Shown here piece by piece: positions 1 through 27,608 of a stretch of DNA of 64,000 nt. The translations under genes and the position numbers were made by a program. Each line of letters begins with the position of its first letter. Positions within the stretch are counted from its first letter, which is position 1. The notes under the pieces were generated by a model, which saw nothing but the letters and a program-made list of their open reading frames with translations, made no database searches and had not been told where the DNA came from. Origin of the DNA: an uncultured Gammaproteobacteria bacterium (GTDB taxonomy: Bacteria > Patescibacteriota > Microgenomatia > UBA1406 > HO2-37-13b); the NCBI GenBank assembly GCA_964413645.1, contig CAYPSA010000002.1, forward strand, positions 22,508 to 86,507, in the 5' to 3' direction.

Positions 1-6
1 GTACAA

Positions 7-438
7 ATGGAAAACTACAAGCAGGGTGTCGTATCAGTTTCGGGTGAGGCATATAAGCATGATGACGCCAAAAGCGGTCTAACGTCATACTACCCAACTC
101 GATCAGATGCAATACGAGATGGCGTACAGGAAAGTCACCTTGAAAAAGTAACACTTGATCAGGATAAGTTTATTGATCTTTCAACATTTACCAAAGACAA
201 TCCTAACCCGCACAATTTTAATGCGATGCAGGAGGCAAAACGAAAGGGTAAAGATATTAACTATGCCTACGTAAATGAGTCAAGCCCACCTCAGAGAGTG
301 CAACAGTTTTTCGAGATGTCACACGCCCGCAATGAAGCGTATGGCATAAAGGGTGTTGTTGTACGGCGTCAAGGAAAAGATAGTAGTGATCATATTATTC
401 GTTTGTACTCACCCAGTACTAAAAACAAAAAATCATGA
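7..438 (+). CDS. hypothetical protein, first visible gene of T4SS-like cluster (possibly 5'-truncated by window edge)
   Basis: 143-aa ORF. No stop between nt 1 and the ATG at 7. Its stop overlaps the next start (ATGA at 435-438). No motif recognised. Confidence 0.4.
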   Translation: MENYKQGVVSVSGEAYKHDDAKSGLTSYYPTRSDAIRDGVQESHLEKVTLDQDKFIDLSTFTKDNPNPHNFNAMQEAKRKGKDINYAYVNESSPPQRVQQFFEMSHARNEAYGIKGVVVRRQGKDSSDHIIRLYSPSTKNKKS

Positions 439-1244
439 GAAGCGTACGTATATATAAGGATGATATTAGAGAACATGTGTTAAGAAGTATATTTTTTACA
501 GATACTGTATTAGCTCTTGCCGGAGCAGGCATTATTGCAGCCGTTGTGTTTGCTATCTTTCACTTTGTACTCCATTTTTTTAGCTGGGGAGCTTTTGGCA
601 CGACCGTTCTTGTTTCAGAAATATTTTTTATCGGCATTATTACACAAAAAATCGACAATCAACCAATCTACAAAATAGTACCACGAGCACTCAAGTTCAA
701 ATCAGGTTCAAAAGAGCATAGGCACAGTGATATCGAACCATACTTTGTTGATTTTCAGATACAAGATAATCTTATCGTGCGAAAAAACGCGATTATAAAG
801 ATGTATGAAGTAGAACCATTTGATATTGCCCTTCTTAACAATCAAGATCGAGAGCATTTCTTTGCCAAACTTAAACAAATGATCCATGTGCTACCTTCAC
901 AAGTTCAATTTATTGTGCGGAAAGAACGAGCTAAGGTTGAAGACTACTCAAAACATTTTTTCTCCCTCTACAACAATGCAAACACCAAACGAGAGTCATT
1001 AATTAGCAATTATATTGATGATCTCTCTGGTCTTGTAACTAATCATTCATTTGTAGCAATGCGTCACTATGCAGTGTTTTCAGTAACTTGCGATACGAAC
1101 AAACCACACGAAAAGGTTAAAGCTATTAAGAAAGTATCAGATTTGGGAATGCGCTTTGCTTCATCTCTTTCTGCATGCAATATTACGGTTCGGCCGCTAG
1201 TTGATGATCAATTGTTACAAGTTGGACAAACCACACTACGATGA
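435..1244 (+). CDS. membrane protein of T4SS-like cluster (two N-terminal TM helices plus soluble domain)
   Basis: 269 aa. Hydrophobic stretches VLALAGAGIIAAVVFAIFHFVL and FGTTVLVSEIFFIGIIT. 4-nt overlaps with both neighbours. Confidence 0.45.
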   Translation: MRSVRIYKDDIREHVLRSIFFTDTVLALAGAGIIAAVVFAIFHFVLHFFSWGAFGTTVLVSEIFFIGIITQKIDNQPIYKIVPRALKFKSGSKEHRHSDIEPYFVDFQIQDNLIVRKNAIIKMYEVEPFDIALLNNQDREHFFAKLKQMIHVLPSQVQFIVRKERAKVEDYSKHFFSLYNNANTKRESLISNYIDDLSGLVTNHSFVAMRHYAVFSVTCDTNKPHEKVKAIKKVSDLGMRFASSLSACNITVRPLVDDQLLQVGQTTLR

Positions 1245-3400
1245 AAACCACTAATAAACGAACAACTAAGGGAAAGGTCATAAAACAACAGTTGGGTCTT
1301 ATGCCTGCACTTGTGAACTTTCAAATGGGGCGAAAACTTCGTGAGGAGGTTAAAACTCTTTCTGATAGTAAGGCAAAGCATACTTTTGAGTTAAATAAAG
1401 TACTGAGAGAATACGAACATTACACAAAGAAAAATAAGGGACTCAAGGACATTGAAAAGCACTTTTTCAATGGTGAGCCAAAGCTACATCAGAGCACCCT
1501 TATATTGGCTCTGAGAGAGGAAATACGACGACTTATGGATATCGTGAATGCACAACAAGAAGTAATTACAGAAAAGCCATTTCTAAGCAATCAATTGCCC
1601 AGTATTCAAAAACCAAAGCAGTCTACAAGTTCTAATCCGTTAAAAGCGTTCAAGCTCGATCGACAATACAAAAAAGAAGTTAAGGCATATGAAGAAACTA
1701 TCCGTAATACAGGAAAGTCAGATTTTCATTTTGTTATTGAAAAAGATGACAATGGAATAGCTGTTGAACGAGACGGAACCAAGGCGTATAAAAGCGAATA
1801 TTTGAAAGAGCACGGTTCTCATTTGCAAGTAGGTGAAAAATATCGACGATTTTATTACCTTGCTGATATTCCAGCTTACTTGAGCCCGTATGTATTTTTT
1901 AGACTCTTAACCTCATCGCTTCCCTTTACTTTAAGTGTTTTTATTCAACCAACTCCAAGCAGTGAGCTACTAAAAAAAGCCCGACAGAGACTCTCTGTTC
2001 TTGAAATGCAACAAAATGATCGAGTAAAGGTTGGTAAAATTCGCGATCAACAAACTGACAAGAACATTGAAGAAGTTATGAGTTTCATTGACGAACTGGT
2101 GCATGAGGCAGAAAAAGGTATTTTGTACTCCTTGTATCTTCAACTCGAAGGTAAGGACGAAGCAGAACTAACGCATCTACAAAAAGAGCTTCAAAATATT
2201 ACTGGAGCTATGGATATTACGTTTAATCAGTATACGTTTGGCCATAAAAAAGCATTTAAGAACTTTTTACCATTCAATATTGATCACGTAAAAGAAAATA
2301 GAATCTTGCAATCAACTGCTGCTTCATATCTTATGCCCTTTGTATCAAAGCAATTAAATGACCCAGAAGGCATATTTATGGGAGTCAATGCATACAACAA
2401 TAGTCTGGTGTTTATTGATCCGTTTACCTCACGAAACAATAACATCAATATCTTGGGAGTTTCAGGATCAGGAAAAAGTGTAACGTCAAAGACGTTGATG
2501 AATAGGCTCTATATGCGAGGTATTCAAATTATTGCCATTGATCCTGAGGGAGAATACGTTAATCTGGCACGCTCACTTGGAGGTGAAGTTATCTCATTCT
2601 CTCGAGAGAATGGAATTAACCCGTTTTATATTAATAGCTCGCAGGAGAATGACATTCTTGATCACATATCCACACTTAAGACGTTTTTCAAATTCTTTAT
2701 TCCAACCCCACACTATGATGGAGCGTTACTTGATGAAAAGCTTATAAAGCTCTATGACTCAGGTTCACCAAACTTTGAAAGTTTACTTGAACTACTGGCA
2801 GGGAGTCCTATGCAAAAGGATCTGAGCGTATTATCTGCCGGAAGTTTGCGAGGGGTATTTAACTCAACGCGTCGACTTGAGCTTGAAAATGATGTCATTG
2901 TCCTTGATCTGCATGATCTTAAAAAGGATGAGAAAAGGGATCCTGCAATTTATCTTTTGACTTCACTCATATGGAATTTGGTGAATAAAAACAATGATAA
3001 AAAGCGAATGCTCTTTATTGATGAGGCACATAAACTCCTTGTTGATCCAGAGGTTGCTGTATTTTATCGAGAATTGGTCAAACAAGCTCGTAAGCGAAAT
3101 GTTGGTGTGGTATCCATCACTCAGGATGTTGAGGACTTTCTCAACAATGAGTATGGCAAAGCTATTATTACCAACTCTGAAACAAAAATACTCTTAAAGC
3201 AGTCATATGCAACCCTTTCAGAAATCGGAACTATTTATCCGATGACCGATGAAGAAAAGCAGCAACTCGGACATCTTGAGATTGGTGAGGTTGTTTTATT
3301 TCGAGAAGGTGAGCATGTACGGCTGAATATATTAGTTTTGCCTCATGAGCAACCCTTAGTATTTACATCACAAACTGAAAGCCATGAAGAAACTAGCTAA
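1241..3400 (+). CDS. VirB4/TrbE-family type IV secretion ATPase
   Basis: 719 aa. Walker A GVSGSGKSVTSK, Walker B MLFIDEAHKLL, then SITQD. The long N-terminal domain before the P-loop is typical of VirB4-type proteins. Confidence 0.8.
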   Translation: MKTTNKRTTKGKVIKQQLGLMPALVNFQMGRKLREEVKTLSDSKAKHTFELNKVLREYEHYTKKNKGLKDIEKHFFNGEPKLHQSTLILALREEIRRLMDIVNAQQEVITEKPFLSNQLPSIQKPKQSTSSNPLKAFKLDRQYKKEVKAYEETIRNTGKSDFHFVIEKDDNGIAVERDGTKAYKSEYLKEHGSHLQVGEKYRRFYYLADIPAYLSPYVFFRLLTSSLPFTLSVFIQPTPSSELLKKARQRLSVLEMQQNDRVKVGKIRDQQTDKNIEEVMSFIDELVHEAEKGILYSLYLQLEGKDEAELTHLQKELQNITGAMDITFNQYTFGHKKAFKNFLPFNIDHVKENRILQSTAASYLMPFVSKQLNDPEGIFMGVNAYNNSLVFIDPFTSRNNNINILGVSGSGKSVTSKTLMNRLYMRGIQIIAIDPEGEYVNLARSLGGEVISFSRENGINPFYINSSQENDILDHISTLKTFFKFFIPTPHYDGALLDEKLIKLYDSGSPNFESLLELLAGSPMQKDLSVLSAGSLRGVFNSTRRLELENDVIVLDLHDLKKDEKRDPAIYLLTSLIWNLVNKNNDKKRMLFIDEAHKLLVDPEVAVFYRELVKQARKRNVGVVSITQDVEDFLNNEYGKAIITNSETKILLKQSYATLSEIGTIYPMTDEEKQQLGHLEIGEVVLFREGEHVRLNILVLPHEQPLVFTSQTESHEETS

Positions 3401-4142
3401 TCTTCATGCATTCAAAAATGATCCGTTTGGCTTCATAATTGACACGCTCATTACGATTGTTGTCAATCTTGTTATACCAATTCCACTTGCCGGAAATATT
3501 GTCAGTAGTTTGCGAGGGCCTGCAATTGGATGTTTGATCTCTCTGTTACTTCTTGGGGTATTTATGATTGTAACTATTGGAACAATTATCATGTCGCCTT
3601 TCTTAGTGAGCTCTACATTTCTTCAACAGATAGCCTCAAACCTAACCGTGCCTTCAAATATTGCAGCCGATGATAGTTTTATTGAAACCTCAACTCCTGT
3701 ACAAAATCCCTTTGGAGGATCAGGAATGAGTTACACTGCAATCAATGCCTATTTTCTTGATCCAAACTATTTTTTGCAGTTTGGAAAAATTCATACGGGA
3801 GTCGATCTAGTGCCAACAGATACATATTACAAAAACAGTAAAACATACAAGGAAACGCATCAAGTTGTCATATTTTCAACGATTAATGGAACTGTGACCC
3901 ATTTTATTGATGAGTATGGAGGAGAAACGGTGGAGATCATTAATAGTGAAAACTCACTGCGGGCAATATTTGTTCATTTCAGCAAAGTATTTGTTAATAG
4001 TGGAGACACTATTAAGGCAGGTACTCCCATAGGCATTATGGGAAAGACTGGATTTGCAACTGGAGAGCATCTTCATTATGAAATACGGCTCAAAAACGGT
4101 AATTCATGGTCACTTACAAATCCATTACAATATATACAATAA
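3384..4142 (+). CDS. membrane-anchored M23 (LytM-type) peptidoglycan endopeptidase
   Basis: 252 aa. HTGVDL (HxxxD) and GEHLHYE (HxH) metal-binding motifs in the C-terminal half. Hydrophobic N-terminal segments. Overlaps the ATPase gene by 17 nt. Confidence 0.8.
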   Translation: MKKLANLHAFKNDPFGFIIDTLITIVVNLVIPIPLAGNIVSSLRGPAIGCLISLLLLGVFMIVTIGTIIMSPFLVSSTFLQQIASNLTVPSNIAADDSFIETSTPVQNPFGGSGMSYTAINAYFLDPNYFLQFGKIHTGVDLVPTDTYYKNSKTYKETHQVVIFSTINGTVTHFIDEYGGETVEIINSENSLRAIFVHFSKVFVNSGDTIKAGTPIGIMGKTGFATGEHLHYEIRLKNGNSWSLTNPLQYIQ

Positions 4143-4144
4143 CT

Positions 4145-4915
4145 ATGAAAGACATTGAACTTAATCCCTTAGATAAAAATCAGCGAAAACTACTCCAATG
4201 GGGAGTAGTTTTAATGCTTTTAGTATTTCTTATTGGCTATTTCTTCGCTGTATCGAGAAAAAACACTACTGTCTATCTCGAGAATCAGAATCTGCATGTC
4301 TTTGATGAGTCAATGACATTTTCCTATCCAGATAGATTATCGATGCACTACCCATATCTTCTAGTGGTAAAGCCGGAAAAGCAGATGACGCATGTCTACA
4401 ACCTTGAGTACAAAACAAAAGAAAAAGAGATTCATGAAGTCGTTTTAGATTATCAAAATAGTAAATTATTGACTGTTAGAGGTGCAAGTACATTTATTGA
4501 AGATCAAGACCTAGGTGTTTTGTGCGAAAAAGGAGTAATTAAAAGCGAGTCTGAGGTGCTTTGTGTTGTGAAAATTGACCTAAATAGTATGCAGAACAAG
4601 CTGATTGCTATTGATATCAGATCGATGACTAAGAAAGACTTGTATATATCGAAAAATCTTATAACTGAACTGAGTGTTATTGATGGCAAATATTACTTAG
4701 GTGAAATTGGAATAGATAACCAGAGGAATTTTCTTGTTGTTGACGGTAAACAAATGGCCGCGCCTAATTTAGTAAGTATGATTTATGTGTTACAGGATAA
4801 ACCATACTTTGCTTCATTTAAGAGCGTATTAAATCAGCAAAAGGAGTCCTATTACGAAATAAATGGCTCTAGTGTTATAGAGCAAAAGGGTAGTAAAATT
4901 ACCCTATATAAGTAA
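4145..4915 (+). CDS. hypothetical single-pass membrane protein
   Basis: ORF-track ORF 4106-4915 trimmed to the ATG at 4145, just after the M23 stop. TM segment LLQWGVVLMLLVFLIGYFFAV. Rest looks beta-rich and has no motif. Confidence 0.5.
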   Translation: MKDIELNPLDKNQRKLLQWGVVLMLLVFLIGYFFAVSRKNTTVYLENQNLHVFDESMTFSYPDRLSMHYPYLLVVKPEKQMTHVYNLEYKTKEKEIHEVVLDYQNSKLLTVRGASTFIEDQDLGVLCEKGVIKSESEVLCVVKIDLNSMQNKLIAIDIRSMTKKDLYISKNLITELSVIDGKYYLGEIGIDNQRNFLVVDGKQMAAPNLVSMIYVLQDKPYFASFKSVLNQQKESYYEINGSSVIEQKGSKITLYK

Positions 4916-5035
4916 ATGTTGCACAAATTTCTTGAAAAACTAATTTCACTAGCCAAAAGACTCCGCTACAAAAGACAGGATATTAGCTGGAAAGAAATTA
5001 ATGGTATCATAAAAGAAGATAGGTCGAAAAAATGA
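4916..5035 (+). CDS. possible small ORF (39 aa)
   Basis: Read by eye: MLHKFLEKLISLAKRLRYKRQDISWKEINGIIKEDRSKK. The ATG follows the previous stop directly. Below the ORF-track cutoff; no homology recognisable. Confidence 0.2.
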   Translation: MLHKFLEKLISLAKRLRYKRQDISWKEINGIIKEDRSKK

Positions 5036-5065
5036 GAGTCTATATTAGTTTGGTATACTTTTAAT

Positions 5066-5266
5066 ATGGAGAAGCAAATTCCAAAGGGATTAGGAACAAA
5101 ATTGAAACAAGCTAGAATGAAAGCAAATCTTACTCAAGAAGAGGTTGCTGATAAAGCAGAAGTTTCAGTCAACTATTACGCTCGCATCGAGCGTGGTGAG
5201 GCTATGCCACGATACAACATTGTAAAACAAATCGCAAAAGTTCTGAAAGTTGATCTTCCCTTTTAA
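5066..5266 (+). CDS. XRE-family helix-turn-helix transcriptional regulator
   Basis: 66 aa. LTQEEVADKAEVSVNYYARIERGE is a classic Cro/C1-type HTH. TGgTATACT box at 5051-5059, 6 nt before the ATG. Confidence 0.8.
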   Translation: MEKQIPKGLGTKLKQARMKANLTQEEVADKAEVSVNYYARIERGEAMPRYNIVKQIAKVLKVDLPF

Positions 5267-5433
5267 TTCACCTTTTTTGTATAATAGCCTGTAGAGAAAG
5301 AGTGTTCCTTAGGTGCAAAAGGATCCTTTTCAGGGACATATTCAACCTCATAAGCAACCATAATCTTGCTTATCCAAGGTAAAAAGTGTTCAAAAGAAAG
5401 TGCACCAGGGGCACACAAAATTCGCAACTCCAT
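5263..5433 (-). CDS. possible small ORF (56 aa)
   Basis: Read by eye on the minus strand: MELRILCAPGALSFEHFLPWISKIMVAYEVEYVPEKDPFAPKEHSFSTGYYTKKVN. Convergent with the XRE gene and overlaps it by 4 nt. Below the ORF-track cutoff. Confidence 0.2.
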   Translation of the reverse strand: MELRILCAPGALSFEHFLPWISKIMVAYEVEYVPEKDPFAPKEHSFSTGYYTKKVN

Positions 5434-5594
5434 TTAAATGCGACTTATTCAATGCAGCACGAACATACATACAATAGCCTATCTATAATACTCTAAGCTT
5501 CTTGACAGAGTGAATATTGATCCAATATTTTATTGCTTTAGAACTATTTCAGCACAGTCTTGATTTATTTAATAGATATAGTATACTACTATGT

Positions 5595-5981
5595 ATGAAT
5601 AGATACGATAGATATGCGCAAACCAATCAACTTTTTAGACAAGCACTAATTGATGCTGTAAAAGCTCACGGGCTAAAGGCACTTGCCGCTACTATCGGTC
5701 TTGGTGTATATCAAACATATCAAACTGCAAACTATGAAGCCGCCAATACACCAGAAGTACCTTGTATTACGTCACTAGGAACTCCTATTCCACCCAACCA
5801 ATCTCTTGGACCTGACAAATGTGTGCATGCTTATAAAATTGGCGATACAACAATGAGTTCGGTAATATTCGATGGAACGAGTTTCTGTCTTGAAGCACGT
5901 CCCGGTATTCAAACAGTAAGTGTGGCTCGCGTTGGTGGACACTGTGTTGGCTATGAACCAACTCCAGATGTCAATGAATAA
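5595..5981 (+). CDS. hypothetical protein (four Cys, possible N-terminal hydrophobic segment)
   Basis: ORF-track ORF 5517-5981 starts at TTG; the first in-frame ATG is 5595. TATACT at 5582-5587 lies 7 nt upstream. No motif recognised. Confidence 0.4.
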   Translation: MNRYDRYAQTNQLFRQALIDAVKAHGLKALAATIGLGVYQTYQTANYEAANTPEVPCITSLGTPIPPNQSLGPDKCVHAYKIGDTTMSSVIFDGTSFCLEARPGIQTVSVARVGGHCVGYEPTPDVNE

Positions 5982-6010
5982 GCCCAAATCATCTGCTATA
6001 ATAATCCCTT

Positions 6011-6883
6011 ATGAAAACATACACAAAAAAAGATTTAGGAAAAGGAACGATTGAACTTTTGATTACCTTAGATAAAGATGTCATTAAAAAAGAATTCGAC
6101 GTAACGTTTGATAAAGCCCTTACTGAAGTTGAAGTCGAAGGATTCCGCAAAGGAAAAGCTCCTAAGGATATGGCTTCAAAACAGGTTGATCGAGAAAAGG
6201 TATACGAAAAAGTAATTGGTGCACTAATTCCGGTAGCATACGAAGAGGTTCTTAAAAAAGAATCGTTAACTCCTGCCACACAACCCCACGTTGAGCTCGT
6301 AAACGGCAAAGAAGGCGAAGATTGGGTAATTAAGATTACATTGGCTCTTCGACCCGTGGTAACAGTAGGGGACTACAAAAAAATTGTAAAAGATGTTAAA
6401 GGCGACATGAAAAAAGATGAGATTTGGGTTCCCGGCAAAGATGCAAAACCCGAAGATAAGAATAAAGCAGAAGAAAATAAACGAAAAATGCTAAACACCA
6501 TTCTTGACAGATTGGCTCATGATTCTACCATTGAAATGTCTGATTTAATCATGAAAGACGAAGTAAATCGCCGCTTAACTCAATTACTTGACGACGTAAA
6601 ACAAATCGGCATGACGGTTGAAGAGTATGCACGTTCAAAAAACACCTCGCTTGAAGCTATGAAAGCCCAATTTGAGCATGAAATTGAAGATATGTATAAA
6701 ATCGAGCTAGGACTCGAGAAAATAAGTGATGAAGCTAAAATTACCGTCGAGGAATCTGATTTGGCCGCAATGTTTGGAAACATCACCGATCCAAAAGCTA
6801 AGGAACAGGCACAAAAGAATGCATATTTTTACGCAACGGTCATAAAACGACAAAAAACACTTGACCATCTGCTCGGCCTTTGA
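6011..6883 (+). CDS. tig: trigger factor, short form lacking the PPIase domain
   Basis: 290 aa. N-terminal ribosome-binding signature GFRKGKAP. N- and C-terminal trigger-factor-like regions are joined with no FKBP-type insert. Confidence 0.75.
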   Translation: MKTYTKKDLGKGTIELLITLDKDVIKKEFDVTFDKALTEVEVEGFRKGKAPKDMASKQVDREKVYEKVIGALIPVAYEEVLKKESLTPATQPHVELVNGKEGEDWVIKITLALRPVVTVGDYKKIVKDVKGDMKKDEIWVPGKDAKPEDKNKAEENKRKMLNTILDRLAHDSTIEMSDLIMKDEVNRRLTQLLDDVKQIGMTVEEYARSKNTSLEAMKAQFEHEIEDMYKIELGLEKISDEAKITVEESDLAAMFGNITDPKAKEQAQKNAYFYATVIKRQKTLDHLLGL

Positions 6884-6907
6884 TATCCTTACCTCAAGCG
6901 ACGTGAT

Positions 6908-6936
6908 TTGACGTAGCTAATGTCCTGTAGTATAAT
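6908..6936 (+). promoter_or_regulatory. sigma70-type promoter TTGACG-N17-TATAAT, 8 nt before the ATG at 6945
   Basis: Hexamers read directly: TTGACG 6908-6913, TATAAT 6931-6936. Confidence 0.55.
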
Positions 6937-6944
6937 ATAGGCTT

Positions 6945-7466
6945 ATGAATTTTCCTACGTTGGGAACAAAAAAAACGAAGTTTGTAAAAAATCCGCTTGA
7001 AATAGATACCGCGGCGCGTTCTTATGGCGAACGACGTTCTGCGCCTCCTGCTCCAGAAAACAAACAACCTCGCACTGAATTTACCATATTTAGCCAGATT
7101 CATCATGCTGAGACTGTGGAAAATGCGAAAAAAGTAGACTCATTGCTTGCCCAAGTAAAAGAACAGGTTGATGTTATTCAAAATTACAACAAGTCAATTC
7201 AATCTGAAATTAAGGATATTGAAAAAGTATTAATTACTGGCGTTGCCGAAGGTAATAAAAAAGGATCGTATATTGAAAATATTCTTGAAGTGTTCTTGTT
7301 TGTGTTGCGCAATTTAACATCTAAACTTGGTGAAGCCAAAACGTGGCTATCTGCCATGGAAACTAAAAAAGCAAAACGTGGTAGCGCTTTTGCTGCACGG
7401 TCTAAGAAAAAGGGAACTGCATACTCAATGTCGCAAGAACTTTCAAACGCACGCTCAGTGCAGTAA
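6945..7466 (+). CDS. hypothetical protein
   Basis: 173-aa ORF with a coiled-coil-like, K/E-rich middle. No motif recognised. Confidence 0.5.
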   Translation: MNFPTLGTKKTKFVKNPLEIDTAARSYGERRSAPPAPENKQPRTEFTIFSQIHHAETVENAKKVDSLLAQVKEQVDVIQNYNKSIQSEIKDIEKVLITGVAEGNKKGSYIENILEVFLFVLRNLTSKLGEAKTWLSAMETKKAKRGSAFAARSKKKGTAYSMSQELSNARSVQ

Positions 7467-7489
7467 ATATTTGATATAATAATCCAATC

Positions 7490-7563
7490 GGGCGGTTAGC
7501 TCAGTTGGCTAGAGCGTTGCATTGACATTGCAAAGGTCACAGGTTCAAGTCCTGTACTGCCCA
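7490..7563 (+). tRNA. tRNA-Val (anticodon GAC)
   Basis: Folded by hand. Acceptor GGGCGGT/ACTGCCC, D arm GCTC-AGTTGGCTA-GAGC, anticodon arm TTGCA-TTGACAT-TGCAA, T arm ACAGG-TTCAAGT-CCTGT. CCA not encoded. Confidence 0.9.
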
Positions 7564-7615
7564 CACTCCTCGAACTTGACCCCTTCAGATACTTCCTGTA
7601 CCATTACCTACTACA

Positions 7616-9019
7616 ATGTTATTCGATAAACCCCTTTGCTTTGTAGATATTGAAACTACCGGAACGAGTGTGACTCACGATCGAATTATTGAAGTCGGAA
7701 TGCTTAAGGTGATAAACAATGAGATCGTAGAAATGTATGAGTCGCTCATAAATCCACAAACACATCTTTCCCCATTTATAACAAGCATTACAGGAATTGC
7801 GCCGTCAGACCTTGAAGATGCGCCATCGTTTGAAGCGATTTATCCAGATGTTCATAATTTTCTAAAAGAGTCTATCTTTGTTGCTCATAATGCTCAATTC
7901 GATTACGGCTTTATTCGCCAGGAATTGGGGCGATGCGATATTTCGTATACAAGTCCTGTTTTATGCACTGTTCGACTTTCACGCGCGCTGTATCCTACAT
8001 TCAAACGTCATAATTTGCAAAGCATTATTGAACGATTTTCGATTCCCATCGAACGTCGGCACCGAGCGCTCGACGATTCCAAAGCCATGTTTACGTTCTT
8101 TTCCCAATCGGCAAAAAACTTTCCCTCGGAAGTTTTTAACAATGCAGTTACGACAATTCTCAAAAAACCGTCGCTACCTAAGCATGTATCCAATACCATA
8201 CTAGACAATCTTCCCGAAAGTTCAGGCGTATATATCTTCTACGATGAGTACAATACCCCTTTGTATGTGGGTAAAAGCACAAACATTCGAAATCGGGTAC
8301 TGTCACATTTTACGAGCGCCAAAAATTCTACAAAAGAAATGAACATTAGCCAACAATTACAGCGTATTGAAACAATTCCAACAATAGGGGAATTGGGCGC
8401 ACTACTAAAGGAGTCCGCACTCGTAAAAGAATTACGACCAGTCTATAACCGAATGCTTCGTGTTAAAAGAGAAATGACAGTTTTGACAAAATATACTGAC
8501 AACGACGGATATGATAGAGTAAATATTGAAAGTATTTCCACTTTTAACTCCGACGGATTAGATAGTGTACTGGCCGTATGTAAGACTAAAAGGCAAGCCA
8601 AGGACCTCCTCGTTTCGCTCTGCAAAGAGCATGAACTGTGTGAAAACTTAATGGGAGTTACCAATGGAAAAGGGGCGTGCTTCACATCGAAACTAGGAAT
8701 TTGCAAAGGGGCATGCAGCAAAAAAGAACTTCCAATTAAATACAATATGCGATTTTTGCAGGCGTTTTTTGCTACAAAAATTAAACGCTGGCCTTTTGAT
8801 GGAGCAATTTACATTAAAGAAAAATCAACAACAGGGAAAATTGAGTATTTTGAAGTGAATAATTGGTGCATAGTTGGGAGATACAGTGAACATGATGCGG
8901 AACATTCAACGCCGCAGGCTCTTTCATTTGACTATGATACCTATAAAATACTCGCTCGATTTATTTTCAACGAAAAGAATAAATCAAAAATTCAAAGCAA
9001 TCCTCAACACACTCTTTAA
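7616..9019 (+). CDS. DnaQ-like 3'-5' exonuclease fused to GIY-YIG (Cho/UvrC-N-like) nuclease
   Basis: 467 aa. ExoI FVDIETTG, ExoII VAHNAQFDYGF, ExoIII HRALDD. Then GVYIFY...LYVGKS...R GIY-YIG motifs and a Cys-rich C-terminal region. Confidence 0.8.
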   Translation: MLFDKPLCFVDIETTGTSVTHDRIIEVGMLKVINNEIVEMYESLINPQTHLSPFITSITGIAPSDLEDAPSFEAIYPDVHNFLKESIFVAHNAQFDYGFIRQELGRCDISYTSPVLCTVRLSRALYPTFKRHNLQSIIERFSIPIERRHRALDDSKAMFTFFSQSAKNFPSEVFNNAVTTILKKPSLPKHVSNTILDNLPESSGVYIFYDEYNTPLYVGKSTNIRNRVLSHFTSAKNSTKEMNISQQLQRIETIPTIGELGALLKESALVKELRPVYNRMLRVKREMTVLTKYTDNDGYDRVNIESISTFNSDGLDSVLAVCKTKRQAKDLLVSLCKEHELCENLMGVTNGKGACFTSKLGICKGACSKKELPIKYNMRFLQAFFATKIKRWPFDGAIYIKEKSTTGKIEYFEVNNWCIVGRYSEHDAEHSTPQALSFDYDTYKILARFIFNEKNKSKIQSNPQHTL

Positions 9020-9093
9020 ATAGAATTTGGCGAAATGACGAATATTAAGTTAGATTGTCGCTATGCTATAATTTAATCATAATTTTAGTTAAT

Positions 9094-9711
9094 ATGCCAG
9101 AAAAACAAGTAAAACACGAACGAGCAGCAAAAGCATTTGAAGCTGGAAGAGATAGTCAAGATATTGGCGCCTACTATGGAATAACGCTTGCAAGCCTTAT
9201 TACCGCAATTGAAACAGGGCAACTTTCACCACAATTTGAAAAATCATTCAACGTAACAGTTCTAGGAGAACCGTCCGATAATCATGGTGAAGTTGATGCC
9301 TTTGAAGATGAAGCTAGAAAAGCATCTGTGTGGTCAGCGCTGGAACCAATCCTCCTACAGCACCCAGAACTCCGCAAAAAGGCATTGTTTATATATAAAT
9401 ACGCAGCGTTCCCTGCTAGTCGTACAGATAGTGGACGAACAGAAAAGAGAAAAATAATGCGACGTGCAGGTATGTCGGATGATGATATTACCCAGCTAGA
9501 AGAATTTAAATTTCCGGGTAGTGGCGTAGTTATCGGACTATCAAAAGATTTTATACGGCGAACTACTGATGCACATCAACAATTGGTAACGGGAAGCTGC
9601 TTGAAAATTTCTCAAACAGAAATATTTTTTGCCGATATTGTTGCAATTGAACCTCTTGATGATGAGGCTTATAACTATCTAGATTCCTTACAACCGCAAT
9701 TGAGTAACTAA
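9094..9711 (+). CDS. hypothetical protein
   Basis: ORF-track ORF 9055-9711 trimmed to the first ATG (MPEKQVKHE). No motif recognised. Confidence 0.45.
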   Translation: MPEKQVKHERAAKAFEAGRDSQDIGAYYGITLASLITAIETGQLSPQFEKSFNVTVLGEPSDNHGEVDAFEDEARKASVWSALEPILLQHPELRKKALFIYKYAAFPASRTDSGRTEKRKIMRRAGMSDDDITQLEEFKFPGSGVVIGLSKDFIRRTTDAHQQLVTGSCLKISQTEIFFADIVAIEPLDDEAYNYLDSLQPQLSN

Positions 9712-9762
9712 TGTTTGGTTTAATGTCTTAGAAGTCATACTATTTTGTTATATAATAACTTC

Positions 9763-11505
9763 ATGAATTCTAATAATCTCGACAATCTTCGTCACTCGGC
9801 TGCGCATTTACTTGCAGCTGCTGTTATGGAGCTGTGGCCTACTACAAAACGAACGATTGGTCCTGCTATTGAAAACGGTTTTTATTTTGATTTTGAATTT
9901 GAACACCCAGTTTCAGAAAATGATTTTGCCAAAATCGAGCAAAAAATGCATGAGTTAGTAAAAAAATGGGAATCGTTTGAGCGCAGAGAGCTTTCAGCGG
10001 CCGATGCAAAAAAAGAATATCCAGATAATCCGTATAAACATGAACTTATTGATGAATTTTCCCAAAACGGTGAAACACTTACCTTTTATAAATCTGGCGA
10101 TTACTGGGATTTGTGTAAAGGCGGACACTGTGAGCATCCAAAAGATGAATTAAAATACTTCAAACTCCTCTCCGTGGCCGGTGCATATTGGCGCGGGAGC
10201 GAAAAAAATAAAATGCTTACCCGTATTTATGGAACTATTTTCCCAACAAAAGAGGAGCTTGAAGCGCATTTGACACTTCTCGAGGAAGCTAAAAAACGAG
10301 ATCACCGAAAAATTGGCGCTGAACAACAATTATTTTTCATTGACGACGTTGTTGGAAAAGGACTGGTTATGTGGCTTCCTAATGGGACGATTATTCGCGA
10401 CCAAATCGAAAAATTAGCGATTGAAATGGAAGAAAAAGATGGGTACGTTCGCGTTGTTACCCCACATATTGCAAAAGAAGAGCTATTTACCACATCTGGA
10501 CACTTACCGTACTACAAAGATGGCATGTTCCCTCCGATGGTCATGGATGACGGAACATATTATTTGAAGGCTATGAATTGCCCACATCATCACCGCATCT
10601 ATTTACATACTCCAAAATCATACCGCGAGCTTCCTCTACGACTTGCCGAATATGGAACGGTATATCGCAATGAACTTTCTGGAACACTCGCCGGACTTCT
10701 TCGAGTAAGAGCGTTGGCCATGAACGATGCTCATATTTATTTGCGTAAAGATCAAGTAAAAGAAGAGTTTAAAAAAGTTTTAAAACTTACCACCGAGTAT
10801 TTCAACATGTTTGGACTAAAAGATTATTGGTTCCGACTTTCTAAATGGGATAAGGAGCATAAAGAAAAATACATCGACGAGCCGGAAAATTGGGAATATA
10901 CCGAGCAAGTTATTCGAGAAGTGCTACAAGAAGAAAAATACCAATTTGAAGAAGTTGCCGATGAAGCCGCATTTTACGGTCCAAAAGTTGATGTTCAATT
11001 TAAATCAATTATTGGTCGCGAAGAAACGATGTCGACTATTCAGCTTGATTTTGCTGCAAAATCACGTTTTAATCTCTCCTATACAGATGAGACTGGAGCA
11101 GACAACAATGAAGTATTTGTTATTCACCGCGCACCGCTCTCTACGCATGAACGGTTCATGGCTTTCTTAATCGAACACTACGCAGGAGCGTTTCCATTTT
11201 GGCTCGCACCAGTACAAGTCTCGATTCTTCCGGTATCCGACAAATTTGCTGATTATGCTCAAGAAGTTGCAAAAGAACTCAAAACACGTGGAGTTCGCGT
11301 TTATGTCGATTCCGATAATAAAACGCTCGGAGCCAAGATTCGCCAAACCACATTGCAAAAGGTGCCCTTCATGTGTATAATAGGAGAGAAAGAAGTTGAA
11401 GCAAAGAGTGTTTCAGTACGAACACGTGAAGGAGTAGACCTTGGTGTTATGTCGATAGACGACTTTGCTAACAAATTATCAAACCACATTGAGAACAAAC
11501 AATAA
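9763..11505 (+). CDS. thrS: threonyl-tRNA synthetase (no N-terminal TGS domain)
   Basis: HSAAHLLAAAV editing-domain motif close to the N-terminus. Class II core (YYLKAMNCPHH, FRNELSG, RVR). Start trimmed to the ATG at 9763; TATAAT at 9751-9756. Confidence 0.9.
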   Translation: MNSNNLDNLRHSAAHLLAAAVMELWPTTKRTIGPAIENGFYFDFEFEHPVSENDFAKIEQKMHELVKKWESFERRELSAADAKKEYPDNPYKHELIDEFSQNGETLTFYKSGDYWDLCKGGHCEHPKDELKYFKLLSVAGAYWRGSEKNKMLTRIYGTIFPTKEELEAHLTLLEEAKKRDHRKIGAEQQLFFIDDVVGKGLVMWLPNGTIIRDQIEKLAIEMEEKDGYVRVVTPHIAKEELFTTSGHLPYYKDGMFPPMVMDDGTYYLKAMNCPHHHRIYLHTPKSYRELPLRLAEYGTVYRNELSGTLAGLLRVRALAMNDAHIYLRKDQVKEEFKKVLKLTTEYFNMFGLKDYWFRLSKWDKEHKEKYIDEPENWEYTEQVIREVLQEEKYQFEEVADEAAFYGPKVDVQFKSIIGREETMSTIQLDFAAKSRFNLSYTDETGADNNEVFVIHRAPLSTHERFMAFLIEHYAGAFPFWLAPVQVSILPVSDKFADYAQEVAKELKTRGVRVYVDSDNKTLGAKIRQTTLQKVPFMCIIGEKEVEAKSVSVRTREGVDLGVMSIDDFANKLSNHIENKQ

Positions 11506-12034
11506 TCGCTTTAAAAAAGATACGAGGGTTTGGTATGTGCGAAATGAACATATTTCTGCACCTGAACTGCGATTAATCGATGAAACTGGTCATCAACTCG
11601 AAGTCATGAAACGCGACGATGCGCTTGCGCTCGCCCGTGAAAAAGAAGTCGATTTGGTGTTAATTGCTGCGCAAGCACAACCACCAGTAGCAAAGTTAAT
11701 CGACTTTCAAAAGTTTTTGTACCAAGAGGAAAAAAAGAAAAAGGAAGCAAAAAAAGGCGTGAAGAAAAGTTCGACTAAAGACGTGCAATTATCACTCTTT
11801 ATCGGAGCAAGCGACTTGGAACGAATGCGAGCAAAAACTGAAGAATTTATTAGTGAAGGAAATCAAGTACGAGTTAAACTGGGTTTACGAGGACGAGAAC
11901 TTGGGAAAAAGAACATGGCGTTCGATTTAATGAAGAAGTTTATTGAATCAGTTCCCGATAGCGCCGTTTCAAGCGAACCAAAGTTCCAGGGAAGAGTACT
12001 TTTATGCGTACTCGTTCGTCGAAAGAAAAGCTAA
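11465..12034 (+). CDS. infC: translation initiation factor IF-3 (start codon unresolved, non-ATG)
   Basis: ISAPELRLIDETG...VDLVLIAAQAQPPVAKLIDFQKFLYQ is typical IF-3. No in-frame ATG. Candidate starts are TTG 11465, TTG 11489 (both overlap thrS) and GTG 11537. Confidence 0.85.
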   Translation: MLTNYQTTLRTNNNRFKKDTRVWYVRNEHISAPELRLIDETGHQLEVMKRDDALALAREKEVDLVLIAAQAQPPVAKLIDFQKFLYQEEKKKKEAKKGVKKSSTKDVQLSLFIGASDLERMRAKTEEFISEGNQVRVKLGLRGRELGKKNMAFDLMKKFIESVPDSAVSSEPKFQGRVLLCVLVRRKKS

Positions 12035-12035
12035 T

Positions 12036-12233
12036 ATGGGAAATAAATTAAAAACTAGAAAATCAGCAAGCAAACGATTTAAAATGACCAAAACGGGTAA
12101 AATTTTGCATCGTGCGCATGGGGCTCGACATTTAAAGAGCAACAAATCAAAAAAAAGACTTCGTCACTTAAAGGCCGTACGTTCTGTACAAGGTATCTTT
12201 AAGAAAAAAATTCGACGAATGTTAGGAAAATAA
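12036..12233 (+). CDS. rpmI: 50S ribosomal protein L35
   Basis: MGNKLKTRKSASKRFKMTKTGKILHRAHGARH. ORF-track ORF trimmed to the ATG at 12036, just after the infC stop. Confidence 0.9.
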   Translation: MGNKLKTRKSASKRFKMTKTGKILHRAHGARHLKSNKSKKRLRHLKAVRSVQGIFKKKIRRMLGK

Positions 12234-12234
12234 T

Positions 12235-12582
12235 ATGGTACGAGTAAAAGGTGGCGTTAAATCGCACAGAAATCACAAAAAAGTTCTTGACCTTGCAAAA
12301 GGGTATCGAATGACCCGTCGCAAACACTTCCGTTCAGCAATGGAAGCAGTTTTGCACGCGGGTGAATATGCATTTGCAGGTCGAAAAGATCGAAAATCAA
12401 ATTTCCGCACATTGTGGATTGTCCGTTTGAATAGCGCCCTGCGCACAATGAACACAACCTACAGTGCATTTATAAACAAGCTTAAAGTAAAAAATATTGA
12501 GCTTGATCGAAAGGTACTTGCCAAACTTGCCGTTGAAGAACCGGCTCTGTTTGAAAAGATTGTGACTGAAGTCAACAAGTAA
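12235..12582 (+). CDS. rplT: 50S ribosomal protein L20
   Basis: MVRVKGGVKSHRNHKKVLDLAKGYR. Canonical infC-rpmI-rplT order. Confidence 0.95.
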   Translation: MVRVKGGVKSHRNHKKVLDLAKGYRMTRRKHFRSAMEAVLHAGEYAFAGRKDRKSNFRTLWIVRLNSALRTMNTTYSAFINKLKVKNIELDRKVLAKLAVEEPALFEKIVTEVNK

Positions 12583-12588
12583 CTTTCT

Positions 12589-13683
12589 ATGCCCACCAAA
12601 AAAAGCGATATTCTTACGACATTTAGTCAAAAATTCTCCTCTATTACCTCACTTTCCGCACTTGTTCAACTCGAAATCGATTATTTAGGTCGTAAGGGTA
12701 TTGTGAATAAGCTGTTTACTGACATGAAGGATGTCGAGGGTTCGCACAGAGGTGAGTACGGAAAGATGATTAATGAGGTAAAAAATGAGATTACCAAGGC
12801 AATTGAAAGTAAGAAAAAAGCACTCACCGAGGCCTCTCTTAATAGCGTATGGACCGATGTAACACTTCCAGGTGAGAAACCTTCTAAAGGAAGCTTACAC
12901 TTAGTTACGTATGCCATTGAGGAAATTAGTGCAATTTTTGAGCGAATCGGCTTTGCTCGCCAGTCGTATCCTGAAGTTGAATGGGAATATTTTTCGTTTG
13001 AAAGTTTGAATATGCCCCCCGGGCACCCGGCTCGTGATGATTTTGAAACGTTTTTTGTAGACGCTCCTGCACATGAAAAGTATGGCCGCATGGTACTAAC
13101 TCCGCACACATCAAATGGCCAAATTCGCGAAATGATGCGTGTTAAAACACCGCCAATTGCCATGATCAATATTTCAAAAACCTATCGTCCAAACTGGGAT
13201 GTTTCACACACTCCTATGTTTCACCAATTTGAAGGGCTTTGTATTGACGAAGGAATTACCATCGCAAATTTAAAAGGAACCATCGAACATTTTGCTACTA
13301 ATTTCTTTGGGCCAAACAGAAAAACCCGTTTGCGACCCTATCATTTCCAATTTACCGAACCATCATTTGAAGTCGACATAAGTTGCGACATTTGTGATGG
13401 AACAGGATTCGTAAATGATACCATTGTCATTTCGAGGAGTGAAGCGACGAGAAATCTCGGAAAAAACAAATGTAAACTTTGCAAACAAGGTTGGCTTGAA
13501 CTTGGAGGAGCCGGCATGGTTCATCCAAATGTCTTGAAAGAAGGGAAAGTTGATACTAATAAATATAGTGGCTTCGCATTCGGTTTTGGAATTGAACGTG
13601 TATATATGATGAAAGGCGGACTAAAATTAGATGACTTGCGTACTATTTATAGTGGAGATATTAGATTTTTAGAACAGTTTTAA
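12589..13683 (+). CDS. pheS: phenylalanyl-tRNA synthetase alpha subunit
   Basis: 364 aa. GHPARD, FRPYHFQFTEPS, GGAGMVHPNVL, GFAFGFGIERV motifs. Carries an unusual segment between its two CxxC knuckles (see findings). Confidence 0.9.
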   Translation: MPTKKSDILTTFSQKFSSITSLSALVQLEIDYLGRKGIVNKLFTDMKDVEGSHRGEYGKMINEVKNEITKAIESKKKALTEASLNSVWTDVTLPGEKPSKGSLHLVTYAIEEISAIFERIGFARQSYPEVEWEYFSFESLNMPPGHPARDDFETFFVDAPAHEKYGRMVLTPHTSNGQIREMMRVKTPPIAMINISKTYRPNWDVSHTPMFHQFEGLCIDEGITIANLKGTIEHFATNFFGPNRKTRLRPYHFQFTEPSFEVDISCDICDGTGFVNDTIVISRSEATRNLGKNKCKLCKQGWLELGGAGMVHPNVLKEGKVDTNKYSGFAFGFGIERVYMMKGGLKLDDLRTIYSGDIRFLEQF

Positions 13684-13689
13684 ATTACA

Positions 13690-13778
13690 GTCATCCTGAG
13701 CGACCGAAGGGAGTCAAAGGATCTCGGTGTTCAAGCAACACCTAGAATCTTCTCCCGCTGAAGCGGGATCAGAATGAC
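13690..13778. repeat. imperfect palindromic intergenic element, copy A (GTCATCCTGAG...GATCAGAATGAC)
   Basis: The termini are inverted repeats. Internal GGATCTCGGTGTT-N6-AACACCTAGAATC hairpin and CCCGC-TGAA-GCGGG hairpin. Shares blocks with copy B at 63009-63099. Confidence 0.75.
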
Positions 13779-13786
13779 AATTATAT

Positions 13787-18328: not shown

Positions 18329-18412
18329 AATATCATTATACTAAATATATACTCAATGTCCAAATCGGTGGAAATTAATGAAATTTGCCGTTAAAATGGG
18401 TATAATAAGATT

Positions 18413-18520
18413 ATGAATCTGCTAAAAAAAATTAATGCACAAGTCATTTGGAAAATTATAGTCATAATATCATCGCTATTACTGGTGCTTTCGTCAATCA
18501 TTCCACTTTTTTTATCGTAA
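18413..18520 (+). CDS. possible small membrane peptide (35 aa)
   Basis: Read by eye: MNLLKKINAQVIWKIIVIISSLLLVLSSIIPLFLS. TATAAT at 18401-18406, 6 nt before the ATG. Stops 8 nt before the recG start. Confidence 0.25.
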   Translation: MNLLKKINAQVIWKIIVIISSLLLVLSSIIPLFLS

Positions 18521-18528
18521 AATAGGGC

Positions 18529-21321: not shown

Positions 21322-21495
21322 ATGAATAATGAGTTTGAAAGTGAAATCTTTCGACCAGGTGAAAACACAGGAGTATATACAACGCTCGGCTTGTTCGCAA
21401 ATGGCATAAGAACAGTTATTGGATGGCTAATCGGCGAATACGACGATGAACTTACACTGTATGAATATGAAATTGAGGACTGGCCACAAGAGTGA
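21322..21495 (+). CDS. possible small protein (57 aa)
   Basis: Read by eye: MNNEFESEIFRPGENTGVYTTLGLFANGIRTVIGWLIGEYDDELTLYEYEIEDWPQE. More protein-like than the Ser-rich antisense ORF 21213-21515. Confidence 0.3.
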   Translation: MNNEFESEIFRPGENTGVYTTLGLFANGIRTVIGWLIGEYDDELTLYEYEIEDWPQE

Positions 21496-21564
21496 ATAAT
21501 CTTCAACAAGTCCACCGCTAACTTATTATTGTAAAACTCGGGTTTCTAGTGTAAAATACTAACT

Positions 21565-21714
21565 ATGGCACCACTTCCAAAGAGAAAACATTCAACAGCA
21601 CGCAAAGGCAAACGCATGATCGCGCGTAAGACTGCTATGCCTCAGCTTTCAAACTGCGAACACTGCGGCGCACCAAAAATTCCACATCGTGTTTGTAAAA
21701 AATGCGGTAAATAG
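21565..21714 (+). CDS. rpmF: 50S ribosomal protein L32
   Basis: Read by eye (49 aa, below the track cutoff): MAPLPKRKHSTARKGKRMIARKTAMPQLSNCEHCGAPKIPHRVCKKCGK. Confidence 0.85.
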   Translation: MAPLPKRKHSTARKGKRMIARKTAMPQLSNCEHCGAPKIPHRVCKKCGK

Positions 21715-22748: not shown

Positions 22749-22768
22749 GTATGATATAATAAACCTAT

Positions 22769-27578: not shown

Positions 27579-27608
27579 ACTTTGATTGTACAGTTCCTCA
27601 TATAAAAA

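Follow-up and report, generated by a model that had tools for sequence, protein, structure and literature searches.

Sigma-70-type -10 boxes beside start codons and predicted leaderless mRNAs in a Microgenomates genome

Where do the mRNAs of a small Microgenomates bacterium (Candidatus Roizmanbacteria) begin? The question is raised by a 64,000-nt stretch of contig CAYPSA010000002.1 (GTDB lineage Patescibacteriota, Microgenomatia; hereafter the window), in which TATAAT-like hexamers resembling bacterial -10 boxes recur 6-8 nt upstream of ATG start codons. An original prediction had listed 16 such hexamer/ATG pairs without a Shine-Dalgarno (SD) sequence and read them as signs of widespread leaderless mRNAs, i.e. 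transcripts that start at or next to the start codon. We read from the DNA where the boxes lie, their sequence, the promoter elements that accompany them, how well they are conserved and how they are distributed across the clade; from these features and from characterised leaderless systems we infer precisely where transcription starts and how ribosomes load. With considerable confidence, the boxes are predicted to place the first transcribed nucleotide on, or adjacent to, the A of the ATG and so to give rise to leaderless mRNAs.

The window has a GC content of 38-39% and contains one bacterial 16S rRNA and three tRNA genes, and an Rfam scan of its 64 kb identified no further RNA family. Its threonyl-tRNA synthetase (ThrRS, 9763-11505) shares 95-96% identity with proteins of two metagenome bins, one of which is labelled Candidatus Roizmanbacteria, and 45-56% identity with about 30 more Microgenomates/Patescibacteria bins. 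Two relatives (L001 and L002) are syntenic with window positions 5.96-21.9 kb at 80-88% DNA identity, and synteny over 48.5-62.2 kb is shared with a metagenome contig (L075), with ~50-90% amino-acid identity in translated matches. The latter was the only close and syntenic locus among the 30 obtained in a metagenome scan with the Clp protein, the others encoding distant ClpB/C proteins. Genes were delimited by open reading frame (ORF) length and codon usage, with the first ATG of each ORF taken as its start. A strict -10 box was defined as TAnnnT with at least 5 of 6 matches to TATAAT, the loosest definition (that of the original prediction) as TA.... with at least 4 of 6, and the gap as the number of nt between hexamer and ATG; the shuffle control comprised 500 dinucleotide-preserving shuffles of the 50 nt upstream of starts.

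-10 boxes upstream of start codons in the window

All 16 hexamer/ATG pairs, checked against the sequence, lie exactly where they had been reported, including the TTGACG proposed as the -35 element of the DUF5660 gene, at which the pattern was flagged:

6908-6947, plus strand: DUF5660 gene (Pfam), flagged site; TTGACG (6908-6913), 17 nt, TATAAT (6931-6936), 8 nt, ATG 6945-6947
5032-5068, plus strand: XRE/HTH_3 gene; ATGAGA, 16 nt, TGgTATACT (hexamer 5054-5059), 6 nt, ATG 5066
5560-5597, plus strand: hypothetical 128-aa gene; TTGATT, 16 nt, TATACT (5582-5587), 7 nt, ATG 5595, the first ATG of the ORF
5997-6013, plus strand: tig, trigger factor; TGcTATAAT (5997-6002), 8 nt, ATG 6011; inside the 29-nt gap after the upstream ORF
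9751-9765, plus strand: thrS; TATAAT (9751-9756), 6 nt, ATG 9763
18326-18362, minus strand: PBP1A; (T)TGGACA, 16 nt, TATAAT (18335-18340), 6 nt, ATG 18328; 11/12 sigma-70 match
18401-18415, plus strand: 35-aa small ORF upstream of recG; TATAAT (18401-18406), 6 nt, ATG 18413; divergent from the PBP1A promoter
21552-21567, plus strand: rpmF (L32); TAAAAT (21552-21557), 7 nt, ATG 21565; conserved in L001 at gap 6
22755-22771, plus strand: rpsP (S16); TGaTATAAT (22755-22760), 8 nt, ATG 22769
27576-27612, minus strand: pseudopilin (N_methyl/T2SSG); TTGATT, 16 nt, TACAAT (27585-27590), 6 nt, ATG 27578
32997-33012, plus strand: TMEM260-like/TPR gene; TGaTACACT (32997-33002), 7 nt, ATG 33010
37163-37178, plus strand: methyltransferase; TGcTAAACT (37163-37168), 7 nt, ATG 37176
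44117-44131, minus strand: NUDIX paralogue 2; TATACT (44126-44131), 6 nt, ATG 44119
44652-44666, minus strand: NUDIX paralogue 1; TGgTATACT (44661-44666), 6 nt, ATG 44654
51060-51100, plus strand: Clp-type AAA+ ATPase; TTGAAT, 18 nt, TAGAAT (51084-51089), 8 nt, ATG 51098
53980-54017, plus strand: Big_1 domain gene; TTGACA, 17 nt, TGtTATAAA (54003-54008), 6 nt, ATG 54015

The hexamers comprise six copies of TATAAT, four of TATACT and one each of TACAAT, TAAAAT, TAGAAT, TACACT, TAAACT and TATAAA, with gaps of 6 nt (seven sites), 7 nt (four) and 8 nt (five). An extended TGn, said to occur at several of them, precedes 7 of the 16 (manual count from the sequences), and each of the genes concerned is either divergent from its neighbor or separated from it by at least 20 nt. 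Within window positions 1-20000, the best sigma-70 matches, at 11/12 each, are the DUF5660-gene promoter (6908-6936) and that of PBP1A.

Under the strict definition, a box at gap 6-8 precedes 13 of 67 first-ATG starts, compared to 1.70 ± 1.26 in shuffles (maximum 6) and to 23 of 2139 other ATGs in the window (1.1%; binomial p = 4e-13 for 13/67 starts), while the loosest definition yields 25 of 67 starts versus 8.05 ± 2.6. Shuffled sequence, which the original prediction had suggested as a control, therefore does not reach the observed frequency. According to a manual, unscripted tally of the per-gene table, the leaderless-type layout is found at ~1/5 to 1/3 of the window genes and at ~1/3 to 1/2 of those without tight coupling to a gene upstream. 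Among the genes with this layout are the housekeeping genes tig, thrS, proS, rpmF, rpsP, PBP1A and Clp. Of these, proS had been missed by the original prediction, as had, probably or possibly, two further starts:

59697-59712, plus strand: proS, additional candidate; TATAAT (59697-59702), 7 nt, ATG 59710; within the 3' end of the upstream ORF
30030-30044, plus strand: possible additional candidate; TGtTAGATT (30030-30035), 6 nt, ATG 30042; weak hexamer (4/6), without a relative for comparison
28257-28297, minus strand: possible additional candidate; TTCACT, 17 nt, TGcTAAAAT (28269-28274), 9 nt, ATG 28259

Two of the 16 sites have weak points. The methyltransferase start is ambiguous, as TAATAT lies at gap 6 from another in-frame ATG at 37155, and the Big_1 gene has TATAAA without the terminal T, backed by a perfect TTGACA at 17 nt, TGn and conservation in L075, where its counterpart has an identical TTGACA, TATAAA and gap of 6 nt. 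The start of NUDIX paralogue 2 was placed at 44119 rather than at upstream in-frame candidates because its N-terminus MRTNIR matches MRTDTR of paralogue 1. These tandem paralogues (43646-44666, minus strand) are near-identical in promoter and N-terminal sequence, (a/g)gTATACTtactc(c/a)ATGcgtac, and the promoter was evidently duplicated along with its gene. The small ORF with its own leaderless-type promoter (18413-18520) encodes a hydrophobic 35-aa peptide that is conserved in L001 and L002 via conservative changes, and lies 8 nt upstream of recG. The recG start at 18529, which is outside the 16 sites, has a conserved TAAAAT at gap 5 but was excluded, as this hexamer begins with the TAA stop of the small ORF.

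Further promoter-like arrangements were observed in the window. The ATGs of the divergent pair 37155(+)/37156(-) overlap in a CATG palindrome with almost no intergenic DNA (37154-37178), and the starts of the divergent pair 40769(-)/40798(+) are separated by 28 nt, in which -10-like boxes on the two strands, TATAAT and TATACT, overlap each other (40769-40800). A promoter-like site at the very end of pheT (15756-15785, plus strand; TTGCCA, 18 nt, TATAAT, 11/12 match) is directed antisense to PBP1A, into the gene's 3' end, and could reflect chance or an antisense transcript.

Promoter identity, conservation and distribution across Microgenomates

The hexamers close to start codons share further features with bacterial promoters. 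In a pooled set of 98 start-proximal hexamers from the window and Microgenomates loci, TGn precedes 28.6% and a -35 TTG at a 16-18 nt spacer precedes 34.7%, a 6-7 fold enrichment over 1499 intragenic hexamers (4.2% and 5.4%, respectively). The gap is 6 nt at 52 of these sites, 7 nt at 25 and 8 nt at 21, and at the modal gap of 6 the A of the ATG is the 7th nt downstream of the hexamer. A pyrimidine occupies position -1 at 72 of the 98 sites (73%), and G does so at 6. The resulting pattern, Y(-1)A(+1)T(+2), agrees with the YRY "start element" that is reported to govern where transcription starts across bacteria (PMC12641261), and the same 6-8 nt spacing of the -10 box is given for leaderless genes of Mycobacterium tuberculosis in the main text of the GeneMarkS-2 study (PMC6028130).

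When seven promoters were aligned with their counterparts in L001, L002 or L075, the hexamer columns were 98% identical (65/66), as compared to 64% for the discriminator, 66% for the upstream 30-40 nt and 81% for the first 30 coding nt. Beyond these seven, the hexamers of the gene at 54015 and of proS are identical in L075. The spacing drifts, but only within 6-8 nt (8 to 7 nt at Clp, 7 to 8 at proS, 7 to 6 at rpmF and 6 to 7 at thrS). The -35, -10 and spacing of the DUF5660-gene promoter are kept in L001 and L002, with variable flanks, as are the hexamer and TGc of tig (in L002 as the variant TATACT). The -35 and -10 of the PBP1A promoter are kept in relatives, the remainder having diverged. 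In L075, the Clp orthologue is preceded by TTGAAA, 18 nt, TAGAAT, 7 nt and ATG, and proS by TATAAT at gap 8. The sequence upstream of thrS differs in L001, yet it carries TATAAT at gap 7. Across Microgenomates, a TATAAT-like box 6-9 nt from the ATG recurs in ~18 of 30 thrS orthologues, within otherwise unrelated surroundings. Together, these comparisons of sequence support the start-proximal hexamers as sigma-70-type promoter elements.

In several thrS orthologues a terminator hairpin directly abuts the -10 box, and the gene at 33010 likewise has an intrinsic-terminator-like hairpin and T-run directly upstream (tcccccggaagcgggggatttttt); at these sites there is no room for a leader. Compact terminator-promoter-ATG modules of this kind (window 32960-33012; upstream of thrS in L003, L004, L008 and L009) accommodate a GC-rich hairpin, T-run, -10 box and ATG in ~45 nt, and their T-run sits at the -35/UP position. 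Another conserved element was observed at the tig stop codon, where a block of ~24 nt (6866-6895) is identical in the window, L001 and L002 (~32 nt with two mismatches), a degree of conservation above that of the coding sequence on either side. The block also harbors a promoter-like match of TTGACC, 17 nt and TGaTATCCT (6861-6889).

The distance plot proposed in the original prediction shows a sharp -10-to-start peak in the window and ~30 related loci, in the order 6 > 7 > 8 nt. Among 365 genes of 31 Microgenomates-like loci, 49 have a box at gap 6, 23 at gap 7 and 18 at gap 8 (25% of genes), versus 3-4 per position in shuffles. Similarly, 114 of 476 first ATGs (23.9%) have a box, versus 4.3% of in-frame upstream GTG, 5.3% of upstream TTG and 2.5% of downstream ATG codons. 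The signal is present in nearly every Microgenomates locus, including Levybacteria and Amesbacteria bins and L075. Under the same first-ATG rule, only 2 of 137 starts in proteobacterial loci and 2 of 44 in Saccharibacteria loci have a box, without a peak in the latter. No peak was detected in AT-rich loci from outside the Candidate Phyla Radiation (CPR), namely L030 (26% GC, 0/12), L061 (32% GC, 0/18), L046 (0/17), L071 (0/19) and L040 (0/15). In three Saccharibacteria thrS loci, which look leadered, the box lies ~20-25 nt upstream of the ATG and is followed by AAAGGGAA; a few Microgenomates thrS loci carry AAGGAG. An artefact of stop codons, with an in-frame TAA or TAG supplying the "TA" at gap 6, was considered and rejected, as the control loci lack the peak under the same rule; none of the three closest-spaced of the 16 sites overlaps an upstream stop.

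When enriched 5-mers were sought without bias at 4-11 nt before starts, TATAA, ATAAT, TAATA, TATAC, GTATA and ATACT emerged at ~10-fold enrichment, and no SD word was among the enriched 5-mers. Boxes are scarce (8%) at genes that follow their upstream gene by 5 nt or less, and reach 25-37% at gaps of 6-100 nt or at divergent genes, with 15% at same-strand gaps above 100 nt. The proposed link of the box to operon-leading genes was thereby borne out, and its frequency at gaps of 6-100 nt and at divergent genes implies that many promoters occupy very short spacers or the 3'-terminal part of the gene before them.

Alternative explanations and predicted mode of initiation

Several points weigh against reading these boxes as promoters of leaderless mRNAs. 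A generic two-hexamer sigma-70 scan detects no overall excess of promoter-like sites (58 versus 56.2 expected), gene starts derive from the first-ATG rule and not from proteomics, and our literature search found no transcript 5'-end data for this organism or any Microgenomates member, A(+1) being predicted from spacing. Furthermore, gaps of 7-8 nt permit a start 1-2 nt upstream of the AUG, and a shoulder of the histogram at gaps 9, 10 and 11 (11, 13 and 16 versus 3-4 expected) suggests that some promoters give leaders of 3-5 nt. The outcome of the generic scan is what chance would produce if TATAAT-like hexamers, common at 38% GC, sometimes landed 6-8 nt before an ATG. The window contains 555 strict hexamers on both strands, a promoter-centric test over all of them gives a weak signal diluted by intragenic hexamers, and the background of the loosest definition is high (8/67). 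As the generic scan yields no excess in AT-rich DNA, the argument rests on ATG-relative position, co-occurring elements and conservation, and gene-centric tests were used in place of the promoter-centric one. The 13 of 67 starts exceed all 500 shuffles (1.7 ± 1.3, maximum 6) and the 1.1% at other ATGs, the sharp peak recurs in 365 to 476 genes of relatives but not in equally AT-rich controls, and hexamers are conserved at 98% versus 64-66% in the flanks and co-enriched with TGn and the -35, which renders coincidence barely conceivable. Mis-assigned starts, with the true starts downstream and the ATG beside the -10 box incidental, would be favored by the first-ATG rule and by the ambiguity between 37155 and 37176. 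However, Pfam profiles begin 2-9 residues from the proposed Met in L32, S16, trigger factor, both NUDIX proteins, the N_methyl pseudopilin and HTH_3 (position 4 of the Trigger_N profile corresponds to tig residue 5, and position 2 of the L32p profile to rpmF residue 4), and ThrRS orthologues align from residue 1-2. In close relatives, protein-level conservation starts at the ATG, with non-coding divergence just upstream, and a hexamer precedes only 2.5% of downstream in-frame ATGs, making such errors an extremely improbable source of the pattern.

It is also very unlikely that the hexamers act in RNA, as an AU-rich translational enhancer or a non-SD ribosome-binding motif in the style of GeneMarkS-2 group B, with promoters located further upstream. 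An SD-poor genome would need another start-selection signal, and A-rich sequence is found before many internal genes. Group B motifs, as described in the main text of that study, precede first and internal genes alike (PMC6028130), unlike the motif found here at 8% of tightly coupled genes versus 25-37% of others (15% at same-strand gaps above 100 nt). Moreover, co-occurrence with TGn and a -35 TTG at a 16-18 nt spacer would be meaningless in RNA, the invariant T1, A2 and T6 constitute the recognition pattern of sigma-70 region 2, and terminators lie directly upstream at several sites. A further alternative accepts the promoters as real but assigns them very short leaders (1-5 nt), transcription beginning at whichever purine comes first 6-7 nt past the -10 box, irrespective of where the ATG lies. 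It would account for gaps of 7 and 8 nt, for the shoulder of the histogram and for a class of sites with gaps of 10-11 nt at 7616, 48621, 53307 and 57437 (predicted leaders of 3-5 nt). As a description of most sites it is nevertheless unlikely, given that the modal gap is 6, where A(+1) is the canonical start, and that position -1 is mostly a pyrimidine (73%) and rarely G (6%), so that the nearest favored purine start is the A of the ATG. Mycobacterial transcriptome work counts leaders of up to 5 nt as leaderless, and the short-leader variant would leave the biology unchanged.

The class with gaps of 10-11 nt is located at 7576-7618, 48582-48623, 53290-53309, 57420-57439 and 28289-28307, and includes:

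7576-7618, plus strand: RNase_T/GIY-YIG gene, very-short-leader class; TTGACC, 17 nt, TACCAT (7599-7604), 11 nt, ATG 7616
48582-48623, plus strand: very-short-leader class; TTGCCT, 17 nt, TATACT (48605-48610), 10 nt, ATG 48621

Three of these sites are kept with identical spacing in L001, L002 or L075. The gene at 7616, with a predicted 5' untranslated region (UTR) of ~4 nt, has its promoter conserved in L001 and L002 as TACTAT, and the counterpart of 48621 in L075 has the same hexamer at gap 10. In the L075 counterpart of 57437 the hexamer is kept, but with a gap of 7 nt and a different N-terminus.

Every computational test suggested in the original prediction supported the leaderless reading. 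In the proposed mechanism, housekeeping sigma-70-type promoters, built either as -35/-10 or with an extended TGn -10, would position RNA polymerase to initiate on the A of the ATG or no more than 1-2 nt away. The mRNA would then begin with 5'-AUG, lacking both 5' UTR and SD, and ribosomes would start directly on the 5'-terminal AUG, potentially via 70S or IF2/fMet-tRNA-dependent initiation as in characterised leaderless systems. Without a 5' UTR there would be no room for riboswitches, T-boxes or ribosomal protein leaders, and regulation would have to act mainly at the promoter. No T-box, L20 leader, ribosomal protein leader or riboswitch was detected by Rfam in the 64 kb, despite the presence of thrS, infC-rplT, pheST, rpsP and rpmF, and this absence fits a general scarcity of 5' UTRs. 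For gene calling, start prediction that assumes SD models errs in CPR metagenome bins, whereas with a leaderless/Pribnow model the starts of a quarter of the genes would be located exactly.

SD usage and comparison with known systems

The original prediction further held that leaderless and SD-dependent initiation coexist, as the 16S rRNA ends in an anti-SD (ASD) and a few genes such as rpsU have a clear SD:

46384-46388, plus strand: anti-SD core CCUCC in the intact 16S 3' tail (tail …TCACCTCCTTTCT)
62438-62463, plus strand: rpsU (bS21) SD; GAGAGGGGG(T), 13 nt before ATG 62461

The CCUCC is present at this position. Around the 16S rRNA gene (region 44880-48553), no 23S rRNA was identified in the remaining 17.6 kb of the window. 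A 129-aa ORF (46448-46837) is followed by tRNA-Ala(CGC), with tRNA-Ile(GAT) ~2 kb beyond it on the opposite strand, and the rRNA operon appears to be unlinked.

An SD core precedes 11% of the remaining window genes (7% in shuffles), 13% in relatives (7% in shuffles) and 34% in proteobacterial control loci (9%), and the median SD-ASD pairing energy is no better at gene starts (-1.5 kcal/mol) than at random sites (-2.2 kcal/mol). The claim that the genes with a box lack an SD is correct as such (0/10 in the window, 3/103 in relatives) but does not discriminate, since other genes are also SD-poor; with SD use near background genome-wide, SD absence is not specific to leaderless-type genes. An SD-like GAGGG at infC (11524-11528) was not counted as SD, being unconserved in L001 and L002. 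Same-strand stop-to-start distances, pooled for the window and relatives, cluster at -4, -1, +1 and +2, which suggests that internal cistrons are translated by coupling to the preceding stop. At downstream cistrons, which also lack an SD, such spacing would fit termination-reinitiation.

By contrast to this SD-poor background, the SD of rpsU (GAGAGGGGGT, 13 nt from the ATG) is as clear as predicted, pairing with the ASD at -11.7 kcal/mol, the strongest value of all window gene starts. A strong SD or SD-like G-run was identified at rpsU in 13 of 13 orthologous loci retrieved (among them L105-L115), representing about nine distinct sequences with 54-96% protein identity (examples are AAGGAGGTG, AAAGGAGGTG, GGGGAGGTG and CTGGAGGTGAT). 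Pairing energies range from -9.5 to -13.9 kcal/mol in 10/13 loci computed, with spacers of 3-13 nt, and the first percentile of random sites is -8.5 kcal/mol. In L075 (SD region 21440-21461), rpsU ranks first at -13.9 kcal/mol, the next gene reaching -8.8 kcal/mol. Several rpsU database entries are extended upstream of the conserved MIVV start. Coexistence of both initiation modes therefore holds narrowly, for one clear and conserved SD.

A Pribnow box ~10 nt before the start defines bacterial leaderless genes as "TA-led" (Zheng et al., 2011, PMC3160421), and GeneMarkS-2 group C is based on the same mark (PMC6028130, main text). Both surveys, in the parts covered here, report it mainly from Actinobacteria and Deinococcus-Thermus (PMC3160421, PMC6028130). 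As described there for M. tuberculosis, Streptomyces coelicolor and Deinococcus deserti, TAnnnT lies 6-8 nt before first genes without SD, and 20-50% of transcription units are affected, housekeeping genes included (PMC6028130, PMC3160421). Microgenomates and other CPR are absent from the group C lineages in the main text of GeneMarkS-2 (PMC6028130) and from the table of the 2011 survey (PMC3160421), and our literature search yielded no publication on leaderless expression in CPR, Patescibacteria, Saccharibacteria or Microgenomates. If the prediction is correct, a deep-branching, small-genome lineage would join the leaderless-rich bacteria, with implications for whether leaderless initiation is an ancestral trait or arose repeatedly. 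Unlike in group C, where the bare TAnnnT is seen, the full TATAAT/TATACT consensus and TGn are visible here in an AT-rich genome, and the remaining genes are essentially without SD, whereas those of group C use SD-type ribosome-binding sites according to the same main text. The window pattern shows every sequence-level feature of group C except SD-type sites at the remaining genes.

Leaderless mRNAs of Escherichia coli, such as lambda cI and Tn1721 tetR, likewise present a 5'-terminal AUG from a sigma-70 promoter, but are rare and mainly encode regulators. Unlike these cases, the layout described here is found on the core genes tig, thrS, proS, rpmF, rpsP, PBP1A and Clp. Archaeal leaderless lineages make little use of SD, and their downstream cistrons often have stop/start overlaps. 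As in group D of GeneMarkS-2 (haloarchaea and Sulfolobus, main text), many first cistrons would start at the mRNA 5' end, unlike in archaea, however, from a bacterial -35/-10 and sigma-70 and not from a TATA box ~26 nt upstream that is read by TBP/TFB (PMC6028130).

The low SD usage has a counterpart in Bacteroidota, where Flavobacterium johnsoniae also keeps a canonical ASD, with SD at background level genome-wide and rpsU as a strong-SD outlier. In Flavobacteriia the anti-SD is sequestered by bS21, bS18 and bS6, rpsU retains an extended SD for autoregulation, and 60-77% have a strong SD at rpsU (PMC7797042, PMC9976891). Unlike the clade studied here, Bacteroidota are not rich in leaderless genes (1 of 37 genomes; PMC3160421), and they use upstream adenines. 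The Bacteroidota signature comprises Tyr54 and a weakly basic C-terminal domain of bS21, Phe50/Asn56/Lys37 of bS18 and a C-terminal helix of bS6. The bS21 encoded here has 57 aa and a basic C-terminal tail (ILKKEKLREKMKKSW) that ends in Trp; the bS18 and bS6 genes are outside the window. Its best PDB match is a 63-aa bS21 with the same MIVV N-terminus (9i5v_9, E = 2.5e-4), and the match to F. johnsoniae 7jil_z has E = 0.014. By analogy, anti-SD occlusion may occur in Microgenomates ribosomes as a candidate parallel to Flavobacteriia, and the rpsU SD provides a testable link to anti-SD sequestration, so far known only in Bacteroidota, and raises the question of how CPR ribosomes use their anti-SD. 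As a tentative and rather doubtful extension, Microgenomates, a large CPR branch, might largely have given up SD guidance, with leaderless first cistrons, coupled internal cistrons and an anti-SD kept mainly for a small set of specialised genes, rpsU foremost, whose conserved strong SD would be a mark of bS21-dependent anti-SD occlusion with autoregulation as in Flavobacteriia. If true, they would be a second lineage of "SD-blind" ribosomes, independently evolved or very ancient, and their small, AT-rich genomes would combine SD-blindness with a leaderless transcriptome resembling that of Actinobacteria or Deinococcus. Compared with the known systems, the mechanism is familiar, the lineage is new and the signal is unusually clean, on an SD-poor background reminiscent of Bacteroidota.

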